From assembly GCA_965363765.1 (NCBI GenBank), contig CBDTUI010000001.1, positions 26,403-90,402 on the forward strand: a DNA stretch of 64,000 nucleotides, in the 5' to 3' direction. This document shows positions 5,598 through 60,678 of this stretch, one piece after another. A program made the position numbers and the translations under genes. The stretch's first letter is position 1. Each line of letters opens with the position of its first letter. The stretch comes from an uncultured Acidimicrobiia bacterium (GTDB taxonomy: Bacteria; Actinomycetota; Acidimicrobiia; Spongiisociales; JAENVV01). Below the pieces are notes generated by a model that had not been told where the DNA came from, ran no database searches, and worked only from the letters and a program-made list of their open reading frames with translations.

Positions 5598-6965
5598 ATG
5601 TCGACGCTGTGGGGCGGAGGTTTCGCCGAAGGTCCCGATGCGCTGCTGTGGGCCTATACGGTCGACACGGCAGACCGCCGGCTGATCTTCGACGACCTGC
5701 ATGGTTCGTGGGCCCACGTCGGGATGCTCGGCGAGCAGGGGATCATCAGTTCCGAAGAGGCCGCTCAGTTGCAGGGTGGCATTTTGGAGATCGTGGCCGA
5801 GGCGGAGGCGGGCGAGTTTGTTTTCCTGAATTCCGACGAAGATGTGCATTCGGCAACCGAACGGCGCCTGATCGAAAAGATCGGCGATGTGGGCCGCAAG
5901 GTGCACACGGGTCGATCCCGCAATGATCAGGTGGCTCTCGACCTTCGCCTCTATTTGGCCAGGGCGGGTCGTCAACAATTGCAGCACCTTGCCGCCATGG
6001 CCAGGGTCTTGGTTGACCAGGCCGAACGGGTGGGCGACCTCGTGGTCCCGTCATACACCCACCTCCAGCAAGCCCAGGCGGTGCCGTTGGCCCATCACCT
6101 GCTGGCGTATGCCGAAATGCTCCGGCGGGATGCCGAACGTATGCAAGCCGCCGTCTATCGGACCGAAGTGTCTCCGCTTGGAGCGAGTGCCTCGGGAGGA
6201 TCGAGCCTTCCTCTTGACCCTGCGGCCTCGGCCCGGCTTCTCGGTTGGAGTTGGCATTTCGCCAACTCGATGGACGCGGTTGGATCGCGCGACTTTGTCG
6301 CCGAGTACGTCTTTGTGTGCGCCCAGGCGATGGTCCACCTGTCGCGCCTCGCCGAAGAAGTCGTGCTGTGGGCGACTAGCGAATTCGGATGGGTGTCGTT
6401 CCCGGACACATTTACGACCGGATCGTCAGCGATGCCTCAGAAAAAGAACCCAGACGTTGCCGAACTCGTGCGGGGACGATCCGCAGGCGTGATCGGCGAT
6501 TTGTCGGCGATCATGGCCCTGCAAAAAGGGCTGCCACTCACGTACAACCGTGACCTGCAAGAAGATAAGCGGATCGCGTTCCACGCCGACGACGTGCTGG
6601 CCGGGTCGCTCCAGACGCTGGCAGCCATGCTGGCCACGGCCGTTTTCAACCCGCCACCCCCCAACCCGGCAGTCACCGCCCTCGACCTGGCCGAAGTGCT
6701 GGTCGGGCGGGGAGTGCCCTTCCGGACAGCACACGAGGCGATCGGTCAGCTACTCAAGAACCTGGCGGACGACGGGCGGACCCTGGCCGAAGCTACCGAT
6801 GCCGACCTTTCGACTGCCCATGATCAGTTCGAGGCCGAAGACGTCGCTCGGATTGATCCCGTTGCGTCGGTTCAACACCGGGTAACTCCGGGTGGCGGTT
6901 CGTTTCGTGAAGTTGCCCGGCAAATAACCCGCCTCCGGTCTTTGCTGGCAGACATCGGCAAGTAG
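5598..6965 (+). CDS. argH: Argininosuccinate lyase
   Basis: N-terminal LWGGGF. Fumarate-lyase signature GSSAMPQKKNPDVAE. 455 aa. Confidence 0.95.
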   Translation: MSTLWGGGFAEGPDALLWAYTVDTADRRLIFDDLHGSWAHVGMLGEQGIISSEEAAQLQGGILEIVAEAEAGEFVFLNSDEDVHSATERRLIEKIGDVGRKVHTGRSRNDQVALDLRLYLARAGRQQLQHLAAMARVLVDQAERVGDLVVPSYTHLQQAQAVPLAHHLLAYAEMLRRDAERMQAAVYRTEVSPLGASASGGSSLPLDPAASARLLGWSWHFANSMDAVGSRDFVAEYVFVCAQAMVHLSRLAEEVVLWATSEFGWVSFPDTFTTGSSAMPQKKNPDVAELVRGRSAGVIGDLSAIMALQKGLPLTYNRDLQEDKRIAFHADDVLAGSLQTLAAMLATAVFNPPPPNPAVTALDLAEVLVGRGVPFRTAHEAIGQLLKNLADDGRTLAEATDADLSTAHDQFEAEDVARIDPVASVQHRVTPGGGSFREVARQITRLRSLLADIGK

Positions 6966-11677: not shown

Positions 11678-12133
11678 TTAGCCCTTGCGGATCTGTTCTT
11701 CGAGGAAGGCGATCCGTTGGCGAATCCACACCACTGCGCTGTGCGGATCGGCTGAACCCTGCTCGTCGGCGATGGCGTCGATGGCGTTCAGCGTGCCCCT
11801 GACGGAACCCTCGCCGGCCATAGCCAGTTCTATGCCCTGAGTTGGAAACCGGGCCAGATGGGCTCGGAGCCCCTCGAGTTCGCGTTTCATGTCGGCCACG
11901 GAGAGAGGAGCATGCGATCGGAGTATGTCACGAAGGCCGTCGCGTTCCTCCGTCATGGCCGCAAGGGACGCTATATCTCCGGGGTTGGAGCGGGCCTTCT
12001 CTATTTCGCCGGCAAGCTCGCCGAGGCGGCTCAGAATGTCGTCTCGTTTCAATGTTTCTCCCTTGGGATGCCCCGATGGTAGGTGAAGGCCGTCCCGCGC
12101 GTCGGGCCATCCGCCAATTCTGCCCACCGCCAC
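11678..12133 (-). CDS. Hypothetical protein (coiled-coil/acidic). The start is uncertain.
   Basis: ORF with coding-like composition. The track ORF start at 12154 lies inside a palindromic repeat, so I propose GTG 12133 instead. No family recognised. Confidence 0.3.
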   Translation of the reverse strand: MAVGRIGGWPDARDGLHLPSGHPKGETLKRDDILSRLGELAGEIEKARSNPGDIASLAAMTEERDGLRDILRSHAPLSVADMKRELEGLRAHLARFPTQGIELAMAGEGSVRGTLNAIDAIADEQGSADPHSAVVWIRQRIAFLEEQIRKG

Positions 12134-12137
12134 CCGA

Positions 12138-12210
12138 TCTTGGGGCTCCAGCACCCATTATCGGGCGCAGGAACCCAGGGTTCAACCCTGGGTTCGGGTA
12201 GGGGGGGTAG
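12138..12210. repeat. Solo copy (inverted orientation) of the ~60-65 bp palindromic repeat family that is also present as a tandem array at 55759-55947
   Basis: TCTTGGGGCTCCAGCACCCATTATCGGGCGCAGGAACCCAGGGTTCAACCCTGGGTTC followed by a G-rich tail. This is the reverse complement of the unit at 55881-55947. It contains the near-palindrome GAACCCAGGGTTC/GAACCCTGGGTTC. Confidence 0.8.
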
Positions 12211-12220
12211 CCTGGCTCGC

Positions 12221-13642
12221 ATGGATCAGTTTGCACAACGTAGAGCTCAGTTCGCCGAAGCGATTGGAGACGGAGTCGCCATCATTCCGGCGGGACGTGA
12301 CACCACCCGCAACGACGACGTCGACCACGAGTTTCGCCAGGACTCGACGTTCTATTTCCTCACCGGGTTCTCGGAACCCGACGCCGTCGCGATCCTTCAT
12401 CCGTCCCACCCCAGCGCTTCGTACACGCTGTTTGTGCGGCCCCGCGACCGCGAGATGGAAATCTGGAACGGATACCGGGCCGGCACCGAGGGAGCCAAGA
12501 AGGAATACGGAGCCGACGAGGCATATCCGATTGGGGAACTGTCAACCAAACTGAACGACCACCTGATTGGTACCGACACGATCCTCTACCGAACAGGGGG
12601 CCCGCTCGACGAGATGGTTTTGGGGATGATGCAATCGCTTCGGCCGCTCGCCGAACGATACGGACGAACCATCCCCACCCGGTTGGTCGACCCTTCGCCG
12701 ACGCTCGACGAGATGCGACTGCGCAAGTCAGACCCAGAACTGGCTCACCTGCGTAGGGCCTGTGACATATCGGTTCTCGGACACGAAGCGGCCATGCGGT
12801 TCGCCAAGCCGGGAGTGTACGAGTACCAAATCCAGGCAGCCATGGAACACGTCTTTCGCCAGGAGGGGTCACCCCGCAATGGCTATCCATCGATCGTGGC
12901 CTCTGGGCCGAATGCCTGCATCCTGCATTACACCGAGAACGACCGCCAGGTCGAAGATGGTGACCTGGTGCTCATCGACGCAGCGGCCGAATCGGGTCAC
13001 TTCTCTTCGGATATCACCCGAACCTTCCCGGCCAATGGACGGTTTACCAAACCCCAGCGAGCCGTATACGACGTCGTGCTTGGCGCCCATCGGGCCTCGA
13101 TCGGCGACGCAAAAGCGGGCAACACGCATCGCGACATGCACGAAACCGCCAAGAAAGCCATCACGGAAGGACTCATCGACCTCGGCCTACTGCCGCAAGG
13201 TCTCGAAGACTCGCTGAGTATGCACCACTATCGCGAGTACTTCATGCACGGAACCGGTCACTGGCTTGGCATGGACGTGCACGATGCCGGATCGGTTCAG
13301 ATTGGCAATGACTCACGGACCCTTGAGGTCGGAATGTCATTCACGGTCGAGCCGGGCATTTACATTGCGCCAGATCAAGAGGCCGTCGACTTCGTGTTGA
13401 TGGAGTACGACTCATCGGCGCGCTACGAACGGCGTTATCGCATCGGCGCCGAGGCTGCCAAAAAGCTTGAAGAAGAAGAGATGAAGGACGCCCCCCGGGT
13501 TAGCCATGAGATCCCTGCCGAATTTCGGGGAATTGGGGTCCGCATCGAGGACGATATCGCTATCACAGCAGCTGGCCCCGAGAACTTGACCGCCGCTCTA
13601 CCGGTCGATCCCGATGAGGTCGAAGCGATCTGTCAGAACTGA
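12221..13642 (+). CDS. pepP: Xaa-Pro aminopeptidase (M24B family)
   Basis: An N-terminal creatinase-like domain plus the pita-bread domain with HGTGHWLGMDVHD. The start is set to ATG 12221 downstream of the repeat; the track ORF starts at 12083 inside the repeat. Confidence 0.85.
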   Translation: MDQFAQRRAQFAEAIGDGVAIIPAGRDTTRNDDVDHEFRQDSTFYFLTGFSEPDAVAILHPSHPSASYTLFVRPRDREMEIWNGYRAGTEGAKKEYGADEAYPIGELSTKLNDHLIGTDTILYRTGGPLDEMVLGMMQSLRPLAERYGRTIPTRLVDPSPTLDEMRLRKSDPELAHLRRACDISVLGHEAAMRFAKPGVYEYQIQAAMEHVFRQEGSPRNGYPSIVASGPNACILHYTENDRQVEDGDLVLIDAAAESGHFSSDITRTFPANGRFTKPQRAVYDVVLGAHRASIGDAKAGNTHRDMHETAKKAITEGLIDLGLLPQGLEDSLSMHHYREYFMHGTGHWLGMDVHDAGSVQIGNDSRTLEVGMSFTVEPGIYIAPDQEAVDFVLMEYDSSARYERRYRIGAEAAKKLEEEEMKDAPRVSHEIPAEFRGIGVRIEDDIAITAAGPENLTAALPVDPDEVEAICQN

Positions 13643-25379: not shown

Positions 25380-25407
25380 CTCTCTCTCTCTCTCTCTCTC
25401 TCTCTCT
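25380..25407. repeat. (CT)14 dinucleotide microsatellite
   Basis: An uninterrupted CTCTCT... run of 28 nt directly after the sortase stop and ~75 nt upstream of the VWA lipoprotein start. Confidence 0.95.
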
Positions 25408-37496: not shown

Positions 37497-37545
37497 GCGA
37501 CACGCTTCCTAAGCGACACGCTTCCTAAGCGACCGCTACAGCGAC
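37497..37545. repeat. Short tandem repeat (GCGACACGCTTCCTAA x2, plus degenerate partial copies)
   Basis: Exact 16-bp tandem duplication at 37497-37528, followed by GCGACCGCTACAGCGACACTGC. Confidence 0.8.
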
Positions 37546-51955: not shown

Positions 51956-52768
51956 ATGAAGCTCGGTGAAATGGGAACGAAGGTACGTGATTCGATCGTC
52001 GGAACCGTCAAAGGCGCCGGCACGGTGGCCGACACAACGGTCAACGAGATCAAGGACACGACAGTCAAGGTGTTGAAGGGCGCTGGTGGCATTATCCACG
52101 GCGGAACCGACGCAGTTGGCGATGTTGTATCAGGCGCATTGAGCGCTGTCGATGATATCGGCGGCGGTATCCTCAAGGTTGCCAAGGGTGTTGTGCTCGG
52201 TGTAGTTGGCTCGGTTGGCGAAGTAGCGACTGTTACCGCCGGGACGATCAGCGACATTGTTCGCGCAGCGATCAAGGGTACGTCTGAGATTGGTGGCGAC
52301 CTAACGGCTGCCGCCAGTGGCACGGCCCAGGGTGTCATGGGTGGCGCCAAGGAAGTAGGCATGTCGGCTACCGACGCAGCCTTCACCCTCGCCAAGTCCG
52401 TTGTGACGGGTACGACTGAGGTCGGTGGCGACCTCATCGGCGCCGTGACCGGCACCGTTCAGGGTGCCGTCAAGGGCGCATCCGAAACGGGTGGCGATGT
52501 ACTCGGTGCCATCTCGAACACCGCTCGCGGCGCAGTCCGCGGTGTAGGTGAAGTTGGCGGCGACATCGCCGAAGTAACCCGCACGACCATTTCGGCTGCC
52601 ATTGGTGCTGCCAAAGAGGTCGGTCTTGGAGTCGAGGATGCTGCTTCGGCAGCCGCCACCGGCGCCATGGAAGCGGCTGGCAACATTGGCGAGTCCGCAG
52701 TGAACGCGGTCACCGGTGTTATCGGTACCACCGTCGACGGTGTGAAGGTTGCTGTCAAAGGCCAGTAA
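51956..52768 (+). CDS. 22-residue tandem-repeat protein (Gly/Ala/Val/Thr-rich, apolipoprotein/LEA-like 11/22-mer periodicity). Unknown function.
   Basis: Strong RBS GAAGGAGG. No signal peptide. The motif E(V/I/T)GGD recurs every 22 aa (for example EVGGDLIGAVTGTVQGAVKGASETGGDVLGAISNTARGAVRGVGEVGGDIAEV). Followed by a strong terminator. Confidence 0.7.
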   Translation: MKLGEMGTKVRDSIVGTVKGAGTVADTTVNEIKDTTVKVLKGAGGIIHGGTDAVGDVVSGALSAVDDIGGGILKVAKGVVLGVVGSVGEVATVTAGTISDIVRAAIKGTSEIGGDLTAAASGTAQGVMGGAKEVGMSATDAAFTLAKSVVTGTTEVGGDLIGAVTGTVQGAVKGASETGGDVLGAISNTARGAVRGVGEVGGDIAEVTRTTISAAIGAAKEVGLGVEDAASAAATGAMEAAGNIGESAVNAVTGVIGTTVDGVKVAVKGQ

Positions 52769-55159: not shown

Positions 55160-55707
55160 GTTGCTTCTCCAAGAGATTTCTGGAGTGCGGCGACACCCCG
55201 ATGAATTCGGCTTTTAACGGTCCCCTTGGGAATCCCGAGCGAGTCGGAGATTTCCTCCATGGACCAATCCATGTAGTACCGCAAGACGACCGGGGCCCGA
55301 TACTTTTCGGGTAGTTCTGCCAGGGCCGCGTCGAGCTTTGGCTCGAACTGCGGATCTTCAATATGGGGTTTGTCCGTGACGTAGATCGATGGCAGTTCTC
55401 GTTTTGACCGACGAAGTTTGGTGCGTGCCCAGTTCATGCCAACCCGGTAAACCCAGCCTCCCGGGTTGTCATAGGTCTGCACGTCTGACCAGCGCTGGTA
55501 GGCGCGGGTCATGGCTTCATCGGCCGCCTCGATGCCCAACTCCCGGTTACCAAGAACGATCACCAGGGTGCGCACCAAATGAGGACGTTTCGCGTTGTAG
55601 AACTCTTCAAAAGAGTTCAGCGAGATGCCCTGTTCGACTGTCACGGTTCCCTCCATACGGGGAGCAGACGCATCGTTTGGCTTGTTGGTTCCCAGATTCC
55701 GTTCCAT
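55156..55707 (-). CDS. ECF subfamily RNA polymerase sigma-70 factor
   Basis: Sigma70_r2 (FEEFYNAKRPHLVRTL...YQRW). Sigma70_r4 (LPEKYRAPVVLRYYMDWSMEEISDSLGIPKGTVKSRIHRG). The start is set to ATG 55707; the track ORF runs into the repeat array. Confidence 0.85.
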   Translation of the reverse strand: MERNLGTNKPNDASAPRMEGTVTVEQGISLNSFEEFYNAKRPHLVRTLVIVLGNRELGIEAADEAMTRAYQRWSDVQTYDNPGGWVYRVGMNWARTKLRRSKRELPSIYVTDKPHIEDPQFEPKLDAALAELPEKYRAPVVLRYYMDWSMEEISDSLGIPKGTVKSRIHRGVAALQKSLGEAT

Positions 55708-55758
55708 CTCGTTCCCAGGATAGGTCTCCCCAACCTGGCTCCAAACCCACCATTCCCC

Positions 55759-55947
55759 GAACCCAGGGTTCAACCCAGGGTTCCAGCGCCCGAATACGGG
55801 TGCTGAGGCCCCAAGAACAACCCAGGGTTGAACCCAGGGTTCCTACCCCCGTTTTTCGGGGGGTTACAGCCCCGAGAACAACCCTGGGTTGGTGCGTGAA
55901 CCCTGGGTTCTAGCGCCCGGGTATGGGTGCTGGAGCCCCAAGAACAG
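55759..55947. repeat. Tandem array of three copies of a 61-67 bp palindrome-containing repeat (same family as the solo copy at 12138-12210)
   Basis: Copy 1 is 55759-55819, copy 2 is 55820-55880 and copy 3 is 55881-55947. Each starts with the near-palindromes (G)AACCCAGGGTT(C/G)AACCCAGGGTTC and ends CCCCAAGAACA. Copy 2 has a diverged middle (CCCCCGTTTTTCGGGGGG hairpin). Confidence 0.85.
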
Positions 55948-56013
55948 CGCGCGGGTGACAAAAGGTGGGCTGCGGTGGGCTGGGTCGGGACGACGCAGCT
56001 ACCCTTCGGCCTG

Positions 56014-58203
56014 ATGTCTCAGACGTTCGACTTTGCGGGAACCGACGTGATTTTCGTCGAGGGCGATTCGGTACTCACCGCCCTGGTGCGGGGCGGGATT
56101 TACCCGGCCGGTGGGGGAACCCTCTGCTGCGAAGGTGATTGCCCGTACTGCATTGCCACCGTCGACGGCGTCTCGTACGTTCGGACCTGCCAGACAGCTG
56201 CCCGCGAGGACCTGGTCGTCGAACCTCACCCGGCCGACCAGGATCCGCCTCTGCCAGCCGACCAAGGGTATCGGTCCGCGCCCATCGAATACCGCCATGC
56301 TGACCTTGTGGTCGTTGGTCAGGGCGAAAGTGGCCGGATGGCCGTCTACGAGGCTTCGGCCGCCGGGCGAACAGTTGATGCCTTTGACGCCAGTAGCGGC
56401 GAAGAGGTCATCGGGATCTATGACGGTCCGATGGTGATCGTTCGGACACCCGAACGGATGATCCACGTCGAATGTGACGAGATCGTCGTGGCGACCGGTG
56501 CGGCGCAAATCCAGCCAGCCTGCCCGGGGAGCGAACTGATCGGCATTATCACCGGACCTGCGGCGCAGGTACTGGCCACCCAGGGTGTCGAGCTGGGCGT
56601 TGTCGCCGTCGTCGGCCCGCCACCAACAGACCTCGAATGCGTCGTCGCTGTGGGAGAGCTGGTCCGGTTTGAAGGCTCTGACGGTCGACTCAACGCAGTC
56701 GTAACTGTGACCGACGATGGGGAGCGCCGGACCGAATGCGACACCGCAGTTGTCAGCCTGGGGATCTATCCACGTGACGGTCTAGCCCGAATAGGAAACG
56801 GCCTCGCCGTAACCGTCGTCGGCGACGCTGCGTTGCCAGCCACGATTCCTCCCTGTCCATCCGAAGGTGTGATCTGCCCCTGCAACAACGTCGACGTCGA
56901 CGACCTACAAAGCGTATGGGATCGTGGCTTCCACGAGATGGAACTCGTCAAGCGGGCCACCCTTGCCGGAACGGGAACCTGCCAGGGGATGGTCTGCTTG
57001 CCGTACTTGCGGAGTTTCCTCGCTGACCGGGGAGGTGAACTGCAACCGGCGTTCACCGCCCGTCCGGTCGCCCGTCAGTTGACCATCGGGGAAATGTCCG
57101 CCGGCGAACACGACCGGCCCGTACCGCGCACTCCGCTCCACGGAGAACATGTCGCCCTCGGTGCCCGCATGGACCGAATTGGCGGCTGGTGGCGACCGTG
57201 GACATACGGCGATCTGGCAGCAGAATATGACGCGGTCCGGCACAGAGTTTCGATCGGCGATGTCTCGACTCTTGGCAAGATGATCGTGTCGGGTCCCGAC
57301 GCCGAAGCCTTTCTTGAATACATCTATCCCACCAACGTGTCCACCATCAAACCCGGCCGCTCCCGATACGTTCTCATGCTCAACGAGCGGGGATACGTGT
57401 TCGACGACGGCCTAGTCAGCCGGGAACTAGACGGTCCGTTCTCGTTGACGTTCACATCGGGAGGCGCCAGCCACGCCGAAATGTGGATGCGCGATTGGGG
57501 TTCGAGCTACGACGTACGGATGTTGAACCAGACGATGTCCCTTGCCGCCATCAACGTCACAGGCCCGCTGGCGAGCGAGTTGCTCACCAAAGCAGGAGTC
57601 ACCAACCCGCCGCCGTACATGGGCCATGCCGAACTTGAAGTGGCCGGGATCGCATGCAAGGTTTACCGACTGAGCTTCACGGGTGAACTATCTTTCGAGC
57701 TACACCATCCGGTCGACCGATCGGTGGAGCTCTGGCGTGCGTTGCTCGAACTCGGGGCCGAGTACGACATCTACCCGCACGGCCTTGAAGCCCTCCAGCT
57801 GCTGAGGTTGGAGAAGGGTCACATCCTCGTCGGTGTCGACACTGACTTCGATTCGACACCTCGCCGTATCCAGCATGAGTGGGCCTGCCGACTCGATAAA
57901 CCCGACTTCCTTGGCAAAACCGCCGTAGTCCGCACCAACGAGATTTCGCTCGATCGTCTGCTCGTCGGGTTCACCACCGAGCGAGCAACCGTCGACGGTG
58001 CTCTGCTTTACAGCAAGGGTGAGTACTGCGGATATGTCACCTCGGCTGGGTGGTCGCCAATCATTGGGCAAGGAATCGCCATGGCCTGGCTCTATGTCGG
58101 GTCGGATGGCGAGTTGCCTGACGAGGTTGAGATCGACGGCATGCCAGCGGTCCGTGTTTCGTTGCCGTTCTATGATCCGCAAGGCGGCCGAGCTCGTGCT
58201 TGA
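56014..58203 (+). CDS. soxA: Sarcosine oxidase alpha subunit family protein (2Fe-2S Fer2_4 N-terminus, FAD/NAD-binding domain, GcvT-like folate-binding C-terminus). Shorter than canonical SoxA.
   Basis: N-terminal CCEGDCPYC iron-sulfur-type motif. Dinucleotide-binding VVVGQGESG. C-terminal aminomethyltransferase-like domain (HVALGARMDRIGGWWRP...GKMIVSGPDA). The start is set to ATG 56014. Confidence 0.75.
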   Translation: MSQTFDFAGTDVIFVEGDSVLTALVRGGIYPAGGGTLCCEGDCPYCIATVDGVSYVRTCQTAAREDLVVEPHPADQDPPLPADQGYRSAPIEYRHADLVVVGQGESGRMAVYEASAAGRTVDAFDASSGEEVIGIYDGPMVIVRTPERMIHVECDEIVVATGAAQIQPACPGSELIGIITGPAAQVLATQGVELGVVAVVGPPPTDLECVVAVGELVRFEGSDGRLNAVVTVTDDGERRTECDTAVVSLGIYPRDGLARIGNGLAVTVVGDAALPATIPPCPSEGVICPCNNVDVDDLQSVWDRGFHEMELVKRATLAGTGTCQGMVCLPYLRSFLADRGGELQPAFTARPVARQLTIGEMSAGEHDRPVPRTPLHGEHVALGARMDRIGGWWRPWTYGDLAAEYDAVRHRVSIGDVSTLGKMIVSGPDAEAFLEYIYPTNVSTIKPGRSRYVLMLNERGYVFDDGLVSRELDGPFSLTFTSGGASHAEMWMRDWGSSYDVRMLNQTMSLAAINVTGPLASELLTKAGVTNPPPYMGHAELEVAGIACKVYRLSFTGELSFELHHPVDRSVELWRALLELGAEYDIYPHGLEALQLLRLEKGHILVGVDTDFDSTPRRIQHEWACRLDKPDFLGKTAVVRTNEISLDRLLVGFTTERATVDGALLYSKGEYCGYVTSAGWSPIIGQGIAMAWLYVGSDGELPDEVEIDGMPAVRVSLPFYDPQGGRARA

Positions 58204-58582
58204 AGTCCTGGCGGTAACCCGAATCGTGGCCGCGGTCGGGGCTCTTGATGGGGCGGCCTACCCGCCTGACGCAGTCATCATGCGAACCGCGCCGGACGAT
58301 GCCATGGTGATTGGAGGCGGAGCGGTAGAAGTCGAGGATCCGCACGCCATCATTCAGCAGGACAGCGGCTGGACGGGTGTTTGGGTCAACGCCGAACCAG
58401 CCGATGCATTCTTACGCACCAGCTGCGCATGGGCAGTTCCTGACCGGCCCAGCTTCGCCCAAGGGATGATCGCCGGACTGGCTATCAAACTGTGGCAGGC
58501 CAAAGATCGGACGCTGTTCGTATTTCCTACCGCACTCACCGCAGATTTTGTCGAGCGGACTCCGCCGGAGTGGTCGGCATGA
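58196..58582 (+). CDS. soxG: Putative sarcosine oxidase gamma subunit (short). The start is uncertain.
   Basis: Small ORF between soxA and soxB in the alternate frame, with a coding-like sequence (AYPPDAVIMRTAPDDAMVIGGG...). A GTG at 58196 overlaps the soxA stop. Confidence 0.45.
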   Translation: MLEVLAVTRIVAAVGALDGAAYPPDAVIMRTAPDDAMVIGGGAVEVEDPHAIIQQDSGWTGVWVNAEPADAFLRTSCAWAVPDRPSFAQGMIAGLAIKLWQAKDRTLFVFPTALTADFVERTPPEWSA

Positions 58583-59790
58583 ACGAGTTCCTCGAACAGA
58601 AAGTCCGGCTCACATGGGGTGAACAAAAACCCAACTACGACGTTGTGATTATTGGGGGAGGTGGGCATGGGCTCTCGACTGCCTATCACCTGGCGACACG
58701 GCATGGCATCACCAACGTGGCCGTTCTGGAACGTAGCTACATCGGCGGCGGCAATAGCGGCCGGAACACGACAGTTATTCGCTCAAACTACGGAGTCCCC
58801 GAATCGGTTCGGTTCTATCAGAGGTCCGTCGAGTTGTACCAGCGACTCGAAGAGGAAACCGATCGCTGGATCATGCACAAACAAAAAGGCATTCTGTGGA
58901 CCGTTCACACGGAAGCCGGACTGAGGCAAGAGCGGGCGCGTTCCATCATCAATCGAGCAAACGGGGTCGAGACCGAGTTTCTGACTCCCAAAGAAGTCGC
59001 CCAAATCGCTCCTGAGATCGACCTAAATGTCGGTGGAGGAAAGTACCCCGTTCTGGGCGCTTCGTATCAACCGGCCGCTTCGACTGCCCGACACGATCGC
59101 GTCAACTGGGCACTTGCCGAGGGAGCGATGCGGCATGGTGTCGATGTACTTCAGCGAACCGAAGTCATCGATCTCATCATGGACGGGGATCGGGTAACCG
59201 GGGTTCGGACCAATCACGGCGATATTTCTGCGGATGTAGTGGTGTCGGCCGTCGGCGGCCACGTCACCCGCATTACCGACATGGCAGGACTGCGGATCCC
59301 GATCCGTACCCACCCTCTCCAGGCGTTCGTGACCAACCATTACGAGCGTACGTTCAATCCAATCGCCTCTTCGCTCGACCTGGGCTTCTACGTGAGCCAG
59401 ACGGCCAGAGGCGAGATGCTGGCTGGTGCCCACATTGACCAGCAGCCCAGCTACTCCTATCGATCCGGCCATCATTTTCTTTCGTCAATCGCCCACAACA
59501 TCCAGCGCTTTCTCCCCTTCATGCGCGACCTGCGCATCCTTAGACAGTGGACCGGAATCTGCGACATGTCGCCCGACTACACGCCAATCATGGGCAAAAC
59601 TCCTGTCGACGGGCTGCTTATCACGACGGGTTGGGGAACGTGGGGCTTCAAAGCGATCCCAGCCGGCGGTGAAGCGATGGCTGAGTTGATCGCAACTGGC
59701 AAGACGCCAGCGCTGATCGCTCCGTTTTCGCTGGATCGGTTCCGCAACGACCGGACGCTGGCCGACCGTAGTTCGGCTGGGACCCACTGA
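58579..59790 (+). CDS. soxB: Sarcosine oxidase beta subunit (FAD-dependent oxidoreductase, DAO family)
   Basis: YDVVIIGGGGHGLSTAYHLA dinucleotide-binding motif. 403 aa from ATG 58579, coupled to the upstream stop. Confidence 0.85.
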   Translation: MNEFLEQKVRLTWGEQKPNYDVVIIGGGGHGLSTAYHLATRHGITNVAVLERSYIGGGNSGRNTTVIRSNYGVPESVRFYQRSVELYQRLEEETDRWIMHKQKGILWTVHTEAGLRQERARSIINRANGVETEFLTPKEVAQIAPEIDLNVGGGKYPVLGASYQPAASTARHDRVNWALAEGAMRHGVDVLQRTEVIDLIMDGDRVTGVRTNHGDISADVVVSAVGGHVTRITDMAGLRIPIRTHPLQAFVTNHYERTFNPIASSLDLGFYVSQTARGEMLAGAHIDQQPSYSYRSGHHFLSSIAHNIQRFLPFMRDLRILRQWTGICDMSPDYTPIMGKTPVDGLLITTGWGTWGFKAIPAGGEAMAELIATGKTPALIAPFSLDRFRNDRTLADRSSAGTH

Positions 59791-60026
59791 TGAGTATCCG
59801 GATCATCTGCGACCATTGTGGGACCCGACCCCTTGAGGAGTACGTCTACGGCGAAATTTTCGACGTACCGGCTTCGATAGCTGATCCGCTAGAACGGAAC
59901 CTGGACCGAGCCTTCAACCACACCAACATCGAAGGCCCGGTGATCGAAGCGTGGTTCCATCTCTATGGTTGCCGGCGATGGATTACGGTCAATCGAGACA
60001 CAGCTACCGATAGGGTTATCGAATGA
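59790..60026 (+). CDS. soxD: Sarcosine oxidase delta subunit
   Basis: 78 aa. MSIRIICDHCGTRPLEEYVYGE Cys-containing N-terminus typical of SoxD. The ATG overlaps the soxB stop. Confidence 0.75.
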   Translation: MSIRIICDHCGTRPLEEYVYGEIFDVPASIADPLERNLDRAFNHTNIEGPVIEAWFHLYGCRRWITVNRDTATDRVIE

Positions 60027-60036
60027 CCTACCCGAA

Positions 60037-60678
60037 ATGTTGGACATGCCGGTAGAAGCCGAACCTATCATTCGACTCATGACCCGACTGGTAGGCACGG
60101 GTCCCGCGCTAGGGACGACCGCTACTCCGATTACAACCAAACGCCTCAGGATTGATCTGCCAACCGAGGCAGCCGCTCACTCGCTCTTTGCAATGACGTA
60201 CGGTCCCGGTGGCCAGTCAGTGACGTCCAAGCTACTGTGGAACGGCCCCATCGACCTGAACGAAATGGCTGCTTGGTGCCAGAAGTACGGGTCAAATGAG
60301 TTCAATGATGGTGGCCACCACTGGGTCATTTCCCAACGCGATGACTTCAGCCGGAGTAGACCCGTGGTGATGGGGGCGATTGGATTGACACCAGGGGATC
60401 AAGCTGGCCTCGCCAGCCTCGGGTACTGGTCGGGTGAGGCGTTCTGGAATCAGGGCTTCATGACCGAAGCGGTTGGTGCCGTCGTTAGCCATGGTTTCGA
60501 CGTTCTCAACGTGGCCCGAATTGAGGCGTGCACCTTCCTGACTAATCCGGCCAGCGCAGCCGTATTGAAAAAGGCTGGGTTTGGGTCGGAGGGCGTTCGG
60601 CGCGAATCGGCATACAAATACGGCGAATGGATTGACCAAACTGTCTGGGCGGCGTTGCGGACCGATCAGGAAAACTGA
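60037..60678 (+). CDS. GNAT family N-acetyltransferase (RimJ/RimL-like). The start is uncertain.
   Basis: TKRLRIDLPTEAAAHSLF N-terminal region. Acetyl-CoA motif region (QGFMTEAVGAVVSHGFDVLNVARIEA). Alternative starts are 60046 and 60079. Confidence 0.7.
   Translation: MLDMPVEAEPIIRLMTRLVGTGPALGTTATPITTKRLRIDLPTEAAAHSLFAMTYGPGGQSVTSKLLWNGPIDLNEMAAWCQKYGSNEFNDGGHHWVISQRDDFSRSRPVVMGAIGLTPGDQAGLASLGYWSGEAFWNQGFMTEAVGAVVSHGFDVLNVARIEACTFLTNPASAAVLKKAGFGSEGVRRESAYKYGEWIDQTVWAALRTDQEN

Follow-up and report, generated by a model that had tools for sequence, protein, structure and literature searches.

An undescribed short palindromic repeat in intergenic DNA of uncultured Acidimicrobiia and its resemblance to REP-type elements

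The window analysed here, a stretch of 64,000 nucleotides from an uncultured Acidimicrobiia bacterium, carries a short repeat in two of its divergent promoter regions. Between the gene of an ECF-type sigma factor and that of a SoxA-like protein (assigned through Pfam), three units of 59-67 nt each follow one another head to tail at 55759-55946, and a solo unit in the opposite orientation is flanked by pepP (ATG at 12221) and by a small gene on the minus strand that starts with TTG at 12052. Each unit is built of three modules: a head formed by two perfect 11-bp palindromes, AACCCWGGGTT, set at a pitch of 12 bp, a GC-rich hairpin of variable sequence, and a tail, GCCCYANGWW, which in the window units reads GCCCC(A/G)AGAAC (Table 1). 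The tandem array, placed at 55759-55947 by a sequence-only reading of this DNA, was confirmed when the letters were read again and by profile search (nhmmer E values from 3e-18 to 2e-13), as was the proposed copy before pepP, at 12138-12195, which shares 83% complementarity with unit 1 along 70 nt (nhmmer E = 2e-19). If up to two mismatches are allowed, the window contains 11 occurrences of the 13-mer GAACCCWGGGTTC, against a mean of 1.8 in shuffled sequences, none of 100 shuffles reaching 11. Folded as single-stranded DNA, unit 1 attains -18.7 kcal/mol (z = -4.9), and the hairpin subtype of unit 2 (CCCCCG type) recurs in a different genome, at 6852-6926 of locus L028. As the same reading held, the repeat also seeds false open reading frame starts, those at 55773, 55927, 12154 and 12083 being artefacts of its stop-free frames.

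Table 1. Repeat units of the window and their modules (P1 and P2, the two palindromes of the head).
Feature	Position	Strand	Sequence or remark	Profile search
Unit 1	55760..55818	+		nhmmer 64 bits, E = 3e-18
Unit 1 head	P1 55760-55770, junction C 55771, P2 55772-55782		AACCCAGGGTT-C-AACCCAGGGTT	
Unit 1 hairpin	55784-55792 pairs 55797-55805		CAGCGCCCG/CGGGTGCTG, loop AATA	
Unit 1 tail	55807-55818		GGCCCCAAGAAC	
Unit 2	55819..55879	+		nhmmer E = 3e-14
Unit 2 head	P1 55819-55829, junction G 55830, P2 55831-55841		as unit 1	
Unit 2 hairpin	about 55845-55864		other subtype, ACCCCCG TTTTT CGGGGGGT	
Unit 2 tail	55869-55879		GCCCCGAGAAC; ends CCCCGAGAAC, not CCCCAAGAAC	
Unit 3	55880..55945	+		nhmmer E = 2e-13
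Unit 3 head	P1 55880-55890, insert 55891-55897, P2 55899-55909		7-nt insert GGTGCGT ahead of junction base	
Unit 3 hairpin	55911-55919 pairs 55924-55932			
Unit 3 tail	55933-55945		GAGCCCCAAGAAC	
Solo inverted unit	12138..12195	-		nhmmer E = 2e-19
Solo unit palindromes	12172-12182 and 12184-12194		positions on + strand	
Solo unit hairpin	about 12149-12170			
Solo unit tail	12138-12148		TCTTGGGGCTC (reverse complement)	

Repeats of other kinds are also present in the window. A perfect (CT)14 microsatellite at 25380-25407 lies in the short spacer of two co-oriented genes, directly after the upstream stop, and a 16-nt tandem repeat, GCGACACGCTTCCTAA, present in 2.6 copies at 37497-37537, occupies a convergent gene junction. 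Within the gene at 51956-52768, an internal duplication of 72 nt (52276-52347 and 52408-52479, 71% identity, 132 nt apart) gives rise to a repeated glycine- and threonine-rich protein segment.

On its own (minus) strand, and outside the repeat array, the sigma-factor gene is preceded by GGAACC (55692-55687), a spacer of 16 nt and CGTCT (55670-55666), the last ending 9 nt before the ATG at 55656. The -35 element GGAACC is kept in 5/5 orthologues, and the -10 element reads CGTCT in three of them and AGTCT in two. With reference to ECF consensus sequences, in which a GGAAC -35 and a CGT or GTT -10 element stand 16-17 nt apart, we take this arrangement to be a canonical autoregulatory promoter of the ECF type, and judged by its sequence and position it is likely to be that of the sigma gene. 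The distance of only 9 nt from the ATG suggests a leaderless or near-leaderless sigma mRNA.

The sequence-only reading had proposed a dispersed family, and a k-mer and profile check brought further copies to light. An exact scan with AACCCWGGGTTSAACCCWGGGTTC over one genome per species (185,579 species) returned at least 40 stretches, those listed being all from eight Acidimicrobiia MAGs. With a profile built from 19 copies, 51 full-length oriented copies were located in the window together with 40 loci (L001-L040) of eight Acidimicrobiia MAGs; these MAGs are fragmentary, and 51 is a count over window and loci, not per genome. Since the 40 loci were chosen by the exact head pattern, the apparent conservation of the head in them is inflated, and the statements made below on head conservation rest on the window, on two further loci (L052 and L053) and on secondary copies. 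The consensus of 49 aligned copies reads (CGCTGG) AACCCWGGGTT-N-AACCCWGGGTTC-[CAG or GTA]-YGCCCG-ATAT-CGGGCR-[CTG]-G-N-GCCC(C/T)-A-N-G-(A/T)(A/T), with an information content that nears the maximum along the dyad arms, is intermediate for the inner stem and tail, and drops to background beyond the element. Variants include a hairpin subtype GCGCGG-ATT-CCG (L017, L020, L022 and L029), head-only copies (L005 and L037) and copies with one dyad or three (L039, L014). At 1103-1150 of L014, three successive 12-nt palindrome repeats are found, against two in the orthologues L010 and L013, so that the head can gain a repeat. Single-armed copies have the head at one end and the tail at the other, the ends not being inverted repeats of each other, and about 5 of some 45 sites are two-armed, in the order tail-hairpin-head-hairpin-tail (L003 at 1394-1484, L008/L038 and L025).

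A distant blastn search against a plasmid collection gave no match, motif strings in the literature matched only primers in unrelated papers, and no paper on this family was found in the literature on Acidimicrobiia repeats. The units of the window are genuine members of a palindromic repeat, short and not described before, which is dispersed among the intergenic regions of a few uncultured Acidimicrobiia. Among viral contigs there were 11 matches, all from one unrelated phage locus of low GC content (L041-L051, IMG/VR, about 42% GC). In these contigs an identical 23-nt double palindrome is present once per contig, followed by a T-run and preceded by a sequence resembling a tRNA 3' end, GGTTCGACTCCCG..., where ARAGORN, applied to L041 and L042 only, called no tRNA; it looks like an unrelated, ordinary terminator made of a hairpin and a T-run.

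The gene context of the copies was established with a simple codon-usage caller trained on long ORFs of these sequences, in which strands are sound and starts unreliable. Predicted genes contain none of the 51 copies. The 50 classifiable copies comprise 20 between divergent genes, 11 between convergent genes, 11 in tandem spacers and co-oriented, and 8 in tandem spacers and opposed. The element occurs in either orientation, 31 copies being co-oriented with the downstream gene and 19 opposite to it. Copies behind genes often start 2-10 nt past the stop codon and may occupy the entire spacer, and some convergent spacers are wholly filled, to within 2-8 nt of both stops. The flanking genes are spread over 109 unrelated Pfam families; no recurrent neighbour gene or transposase was detected among 74 flanking proteins, and when E. 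coli RayT was compared by tblastn with 360 kb of related DNA, no hit had an E value under 1. In short, the element is non-coding, confined to intergenic DNA, and indifferent to the orientation and type of its neighbours. The earlier claim that all copies abut the 5' ends of genes is therefore true inside the window and fails for the family, whose copies occupy divergent, convergent and tandem spacers in both orientations and often start just past stop codons.

Certain neighbours deserve mention in their own right. The only gene seen between inverted copies is one of 304 aa with AbiEi_4 and DUF559 (restriction-endonuclease-like) domains, flanked by two inverted repeat copies at 4100-5011 of L015 and 2160-3074 of L019; its neighbours are a malate/lactate dehydrogenase-like gene and a conserved small gene, and it could be an inserted cassette. 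In three MAGs, copies also directly precede tRNA-Ser genes with the anticodons gga and cga (L006 7333-7398; L039 3380-3445; L025 5932-6010 and 7901-7998), beside an apparent TACAAT -10 box.

The comparison of orthologous regions showed that genomes differing by about 25% in nucleotide sequence have inherited the element at corresponding chromosomal positions. Locus L026, aligned with the window at 7.2-14.8 kb (72.5% identity), carries it at the pepP site in the matching relative orientation, and L033 and L036, aligned at 50.8-58.9 kb (about 76% identity), carry it some 100 nt upstream of the sigma gene. Moreover, a metagenome scan with the sigma protein, by which loci are unselected for the repeat, yielded two close orthologues (L052 and L053, 96% amino-acid identity), both with the element, and sigma homologues at 53% identity or less, none of them with it. 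According to the five-way alignment, the units upstream of the sigma gene number from 1 to 3: the window has three, L052 three heads and two hairpin-tails, L033 one unit and an extra head, and L036 and L053 one unit each. In L052 the first, sigma-proximal head has decayed, the insert of the third head (GGTACGA) matches that of unit 3 of the window, and the middle units of the two sequences have differing hairpin subtypes. Copy number varies among orthologues at four further sites (L001/L023; L017/L029/L020; L022/L035; L028/L027). Within orthologous pairs, the hairpin and tail are conserved about as well as the partly coding flanks, and the dyad arms far better. Inheritance is thus mostly vertical, with arrays that expand and contract, the local variation consisting in the gain, loss and replacement of whole units.

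A search for empty sites among orthologous locus pairs gave no clean case, the element being present in every informative pair, so that its mobility is at most putative. The pair L025 and L039 was considered as an empty site and discarded, being a rearranged tRNA-Ser region. Genome-specific homogenisation of hairpins by concerted evolution was also rejected, as orthologous copies are more alike than copies within one genome. Regarding the other side of the array, the sarcosine-oxidase block of the window (about 55950-60070) is absent from L036 and L053, which diverge from the window directly after their single repeat unit; the repeat there marks the edge of an indel of about 4.2 kb.

The constraint on the head was assessed on palindromes outside the search pattern, of which 44 have intact arms; of those with one mismatch, about 8 lie beside elements. 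The centre of the dyad is A or T in 38 of the 44 (86%), and the junction base is free (A5 G4 T4 C3). An initial impression that centres flip by complement transversion and that the junction is always C or G was abandoned, because the search pattern itself had imposed W and S at these places; only the A/T preference of the centre survives. The centres of the two dyads of a head, W1 and W2, are complementary in 23 cases and non-complementary in 25, that is, without co-variation, and complementarity is not above chance. The head is therefore not maintained as a single long hairpin between P1 and P2, a structure which had been entertained, and each dyad behaves as an independent symmetric site.

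The hairpin module, in turn, has a stem of 8-10 bp and an A/T-rich loop of 4-5 nt. The stem is paired in 82% of cells, a figure hardly reduced by shuffling because it mostly follows from the consensus, and compensatory change is visible at two column pairs (45:62, with CG 19, UA 12 and UG 5; 44:63, with GC 21, AU 6 and GU 8). Whole-hairpin subtypes swap between units, and the foot of the hairpin reads CGTA(G/C)GCCCG in about one third of the copies and CCAG(Y)GCCCG in the majority. Units fold well as single-stranded DNA on either strand, better than shuffled sequences, with z down to -5. Rfam 15 gave no match at the gathering score over the whole window and, at E values up to 10 over 55600-56100, just generic miRNA-type hairpins far below threshold. 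Stem G-U (G-T) and A-C mismatches stand at about 44 to 35, favouring neither strand; RNAalifold predicts just the invariant head hairpin, with zero covariation; and one and the same loop can be read either way round in different copies, as with GAAAAT and ATTTTC. Taken together, the lack of an Rfam match, the strand symmetry, the absence of covariation, the bidirectional loops and the folding of either strand point to an element that acts at the DNA level. A sigma-70-type promoter within the unit (TTGAAC, 17 nt, GATAAT across the hairpin loop) was dismissed, the promoter scan being negative and the loop occurring in both orientations. As to intrinsic terminators, single units have no T-run after either hairpin, and the sole match of the terminator scan needs the junction of two array units.

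On these grounds, the array and the solo copy probably represent, with a probability of about 0.6, a clade-specific family of repetitive extragenic palindromic DNA of the REP/REPIN/BIME kind. The dyad arms would be held intact through recognition by a dimeric protein or by a transposase-type, hairpin-specific enzyme, and arrays would grow and shrink by slippage or by unequal recombination between identical heads. In the window, the element would then be a passenger of two divergent promoter regions and not a regulator. Nevertheless, the fact that the element has stayed at orthologous sites close to promoters would also agree with a function for the host. A rather unlikely extension is that the double dyad is not junk: its copies would be sites, spread over the whole genome, at which a dimeric protein peculiar to the clade binds, be it a transposase that has been domesticated or a factor for chromosome organisation or regulation, and purifying selection would have kept them at unchanged intergenic positions across about 25% nucleotide divergence. 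If this were true, REP-like 'punctuation' would exist in Actinobacteria with a recognition logic unlike that of RAYT and REP.

Close to this lies the proposal that the head is an operator array for such a protein, for instance a global regulator or nucleoid protein, the sites being selected and not selfish. The perfect 11-bp dyads, whose arms stay intact around an A:T centre that may have either orientation (86% outside the search pattern), would agree with it, as would the missing co-variation of W1 and W2, which makes each dyad an independent symmetric site, the exact arms at both window sites in genomes of 72-76% identity, and the recurrence of copies upstream of the sigma gene, pepP, the tRNA-Ser genes and an LLM-type oxidoreductase. 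However, 11 of the 50 copies occupy convergent spacers, in which a regulator would have no target, the head is nearly always accompanied by hairpin and tail, the neighbour genes have no common function, and the sites at one promoter vary from 1 to 3 among close relatives, one head of L052 having decayed; we therefore consider the proposal unlikely. Terminators or 3'-end stabilisers, with the two divergent-region copies of the window as inactive by-products, are an explanation suited to the many copies placed 2-10 nt behind stops, convergent pairs included, and to the two stable GC-rich hairpins of each unit (z down to -5). The phage contigs of about 42% GC show the same 23-nt double palindrome with a T-run, and within the array the minus-strand head hairpin is followed by TTGTTCTTGG, which the terminator scan flagged. 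Yet in a single unit neither hairpin is followed by a U-run, whichever strand is read, 20 of the 50 copies, both window sites included, stand between divergent genes, and termination does not need strict conservation of a dyad sequence, all of which makes this explanation improbable.

Two further readings which give the repeat a role in the expression of its neighbours fared worse. Transcription of the units into a regulatory RNA with a defined structure, be it an sRNA or a leader acting in cis, could account for the compensatory changes at pairs 45:62 and 44:63 and for folding better than that of shuffled sequences, but it is very improbable in view of the ratio of G-U to A-C (about 44 to 35), the outcome of RNAalifold, which predicts only the invariant head hairpin and zero covariation, the 31 co-oriented as against 19 opposite copies, the absence of any Rfam family at the gathering score and the lack of a detectable sigma-70-type promoter. 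The RNA hairpins suggested by the sequence-only reading thus found no backing in strand asymmetry, in an orientation rule or in Rfam. That reading had also seen in GGAAC the -35 element of an ECF sigma factor, by which the head would be a promoter dependent on the product of the adjacent gene. Read on the reverse strand, about 60% of the heads have GGAAC-N17-GTT, which resembles promoters of the SigH/SigE type, and at five orthologous loci some 100 nt separate the ECF sigma gene from the array upstream of it. Nevertheless, the better ECF-type promoter, GGAACC-N16-CGTCT, stands beyond the repeat with its -35 element intact in every orthologue, about one third of the copies read CGAAC, 22% lie between convergent genes, L052 retains the promoter without a sigma-proximal head, and sigma homologues at 53% identity or less are without the element, so that this idea is barely credible. 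The array is not a promoter or RNA switch linked to the adjacent sigma-factor gene, and nothing in the present evidence indicates that the sigma factor or the sarcosine oxidase genes are regulated by a novel mechanism.

The practical consequences of the REP-like family concern annotation and assembly. The repeat explains four spurious ORF starts and is a masking target for annotators of these MAGs, it marks places where the assemblies of the clade may break or collapse, and its unit number could be used as a strain marker. Retained at orthologous sites and built on a perfectly conserved double dyad, the family would also be a useful second case in which to ask if repeats of this sort survive as selfish DNA or because the host uses them to bind proteins.

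Several families of short intergenic repeats can be set beside this one. The BOX elements of Streptococcus pneumoniae, a low-GC Firmicute, are modular intergenic repeats composed of boxA, boxB and boxC, with modules of 45-59 nt. Like them, the present repeat is modular and intergenic, has one module in variable tandem number and folds into stable hairpins, but there is no sequence relation and BOX modules are not perfect dyads. Mycobacterial interspersed repetitive units (MIRUs), of 46-101 bp, lie inside operons in one orientation and carry small ORFs that overlap the stop and start codons beside them. They share with our repeat an actinobacterial host, intergenic tandem arrays and a variable copy number, whereas here, unlike in VNTRs of the MIRU type, the orientation is free and all four gene-orientation contexts are occupied, divergent and convergent spacers included. 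As for MITEs such as Correia and ERIC, these are likewise small, non-coding, dispersed and intergenic, and the rare two-armed copies have the look of inverted repeats; however, most copies have no terminal inverted repeats, and neither a clean empty site nor a related insertion sequence was found. Consequently, from the earlier description of a dispersed intergenic family of REP/BIME or MITE-like type, the former part stands (51 copies, none in genes) and the MITE-like label is not borne out.

REP-like systems have been studied mostly in Proteobacteria, and to our knowledge systems of the REP type have not been described in this actinobacterial class. The differences from them are several. The best-conserved module is here a double perfect 11-bp dyad, which classical REPs do not have; the array units are direct repeats and do not alternate in orientation; inverted doublets (REPINs), the predominant replicating form of those systems, are here in a minority (about 5 of some 45 sites being two-armed); and the 360 kb of related DNA yielded no RAYT gene, which in those systems is single-copy and lies between two inverted REPs. 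REP palindromes have a GT(A/G)G tetranucleotide at their 5' foot (PMC2817692), whereas most hairpins of this family start with CAG(Y), although about one third do start with GTA(G/C). The likenesses are nonetheless broad. REP, REPIN and BIME elements are extragenic GC-rich palindromes which show compensatory evolution, form arrays of variable number, and are persistent and vertically inherited (PMC2817692; PMC3116915; bioRxiv 10.1101/2022.05.22.493013). As in the REP/REPIN-RAYT systems of Enterobacteria, Pseudomonas and Stenotrophomonas, whose palindromes measure 20-40 nt, the repeat is a short, GC-rich, imperfect palindrome that is strictly extragenic and present in many copies; as with REP and BIME, it often stands straight behind stop codons, forms arrays with a varying number of units and keeps its pairing by compensatory change; and a few copies are two-armed in the manner of REPINs. 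Long vertical inheritance at orthologous sites is a further common trait (PMC2817692; bioRxiv 10.1101/2022.05.22.493013). Among known kinds, REP/REPIN/BIME is the closest.
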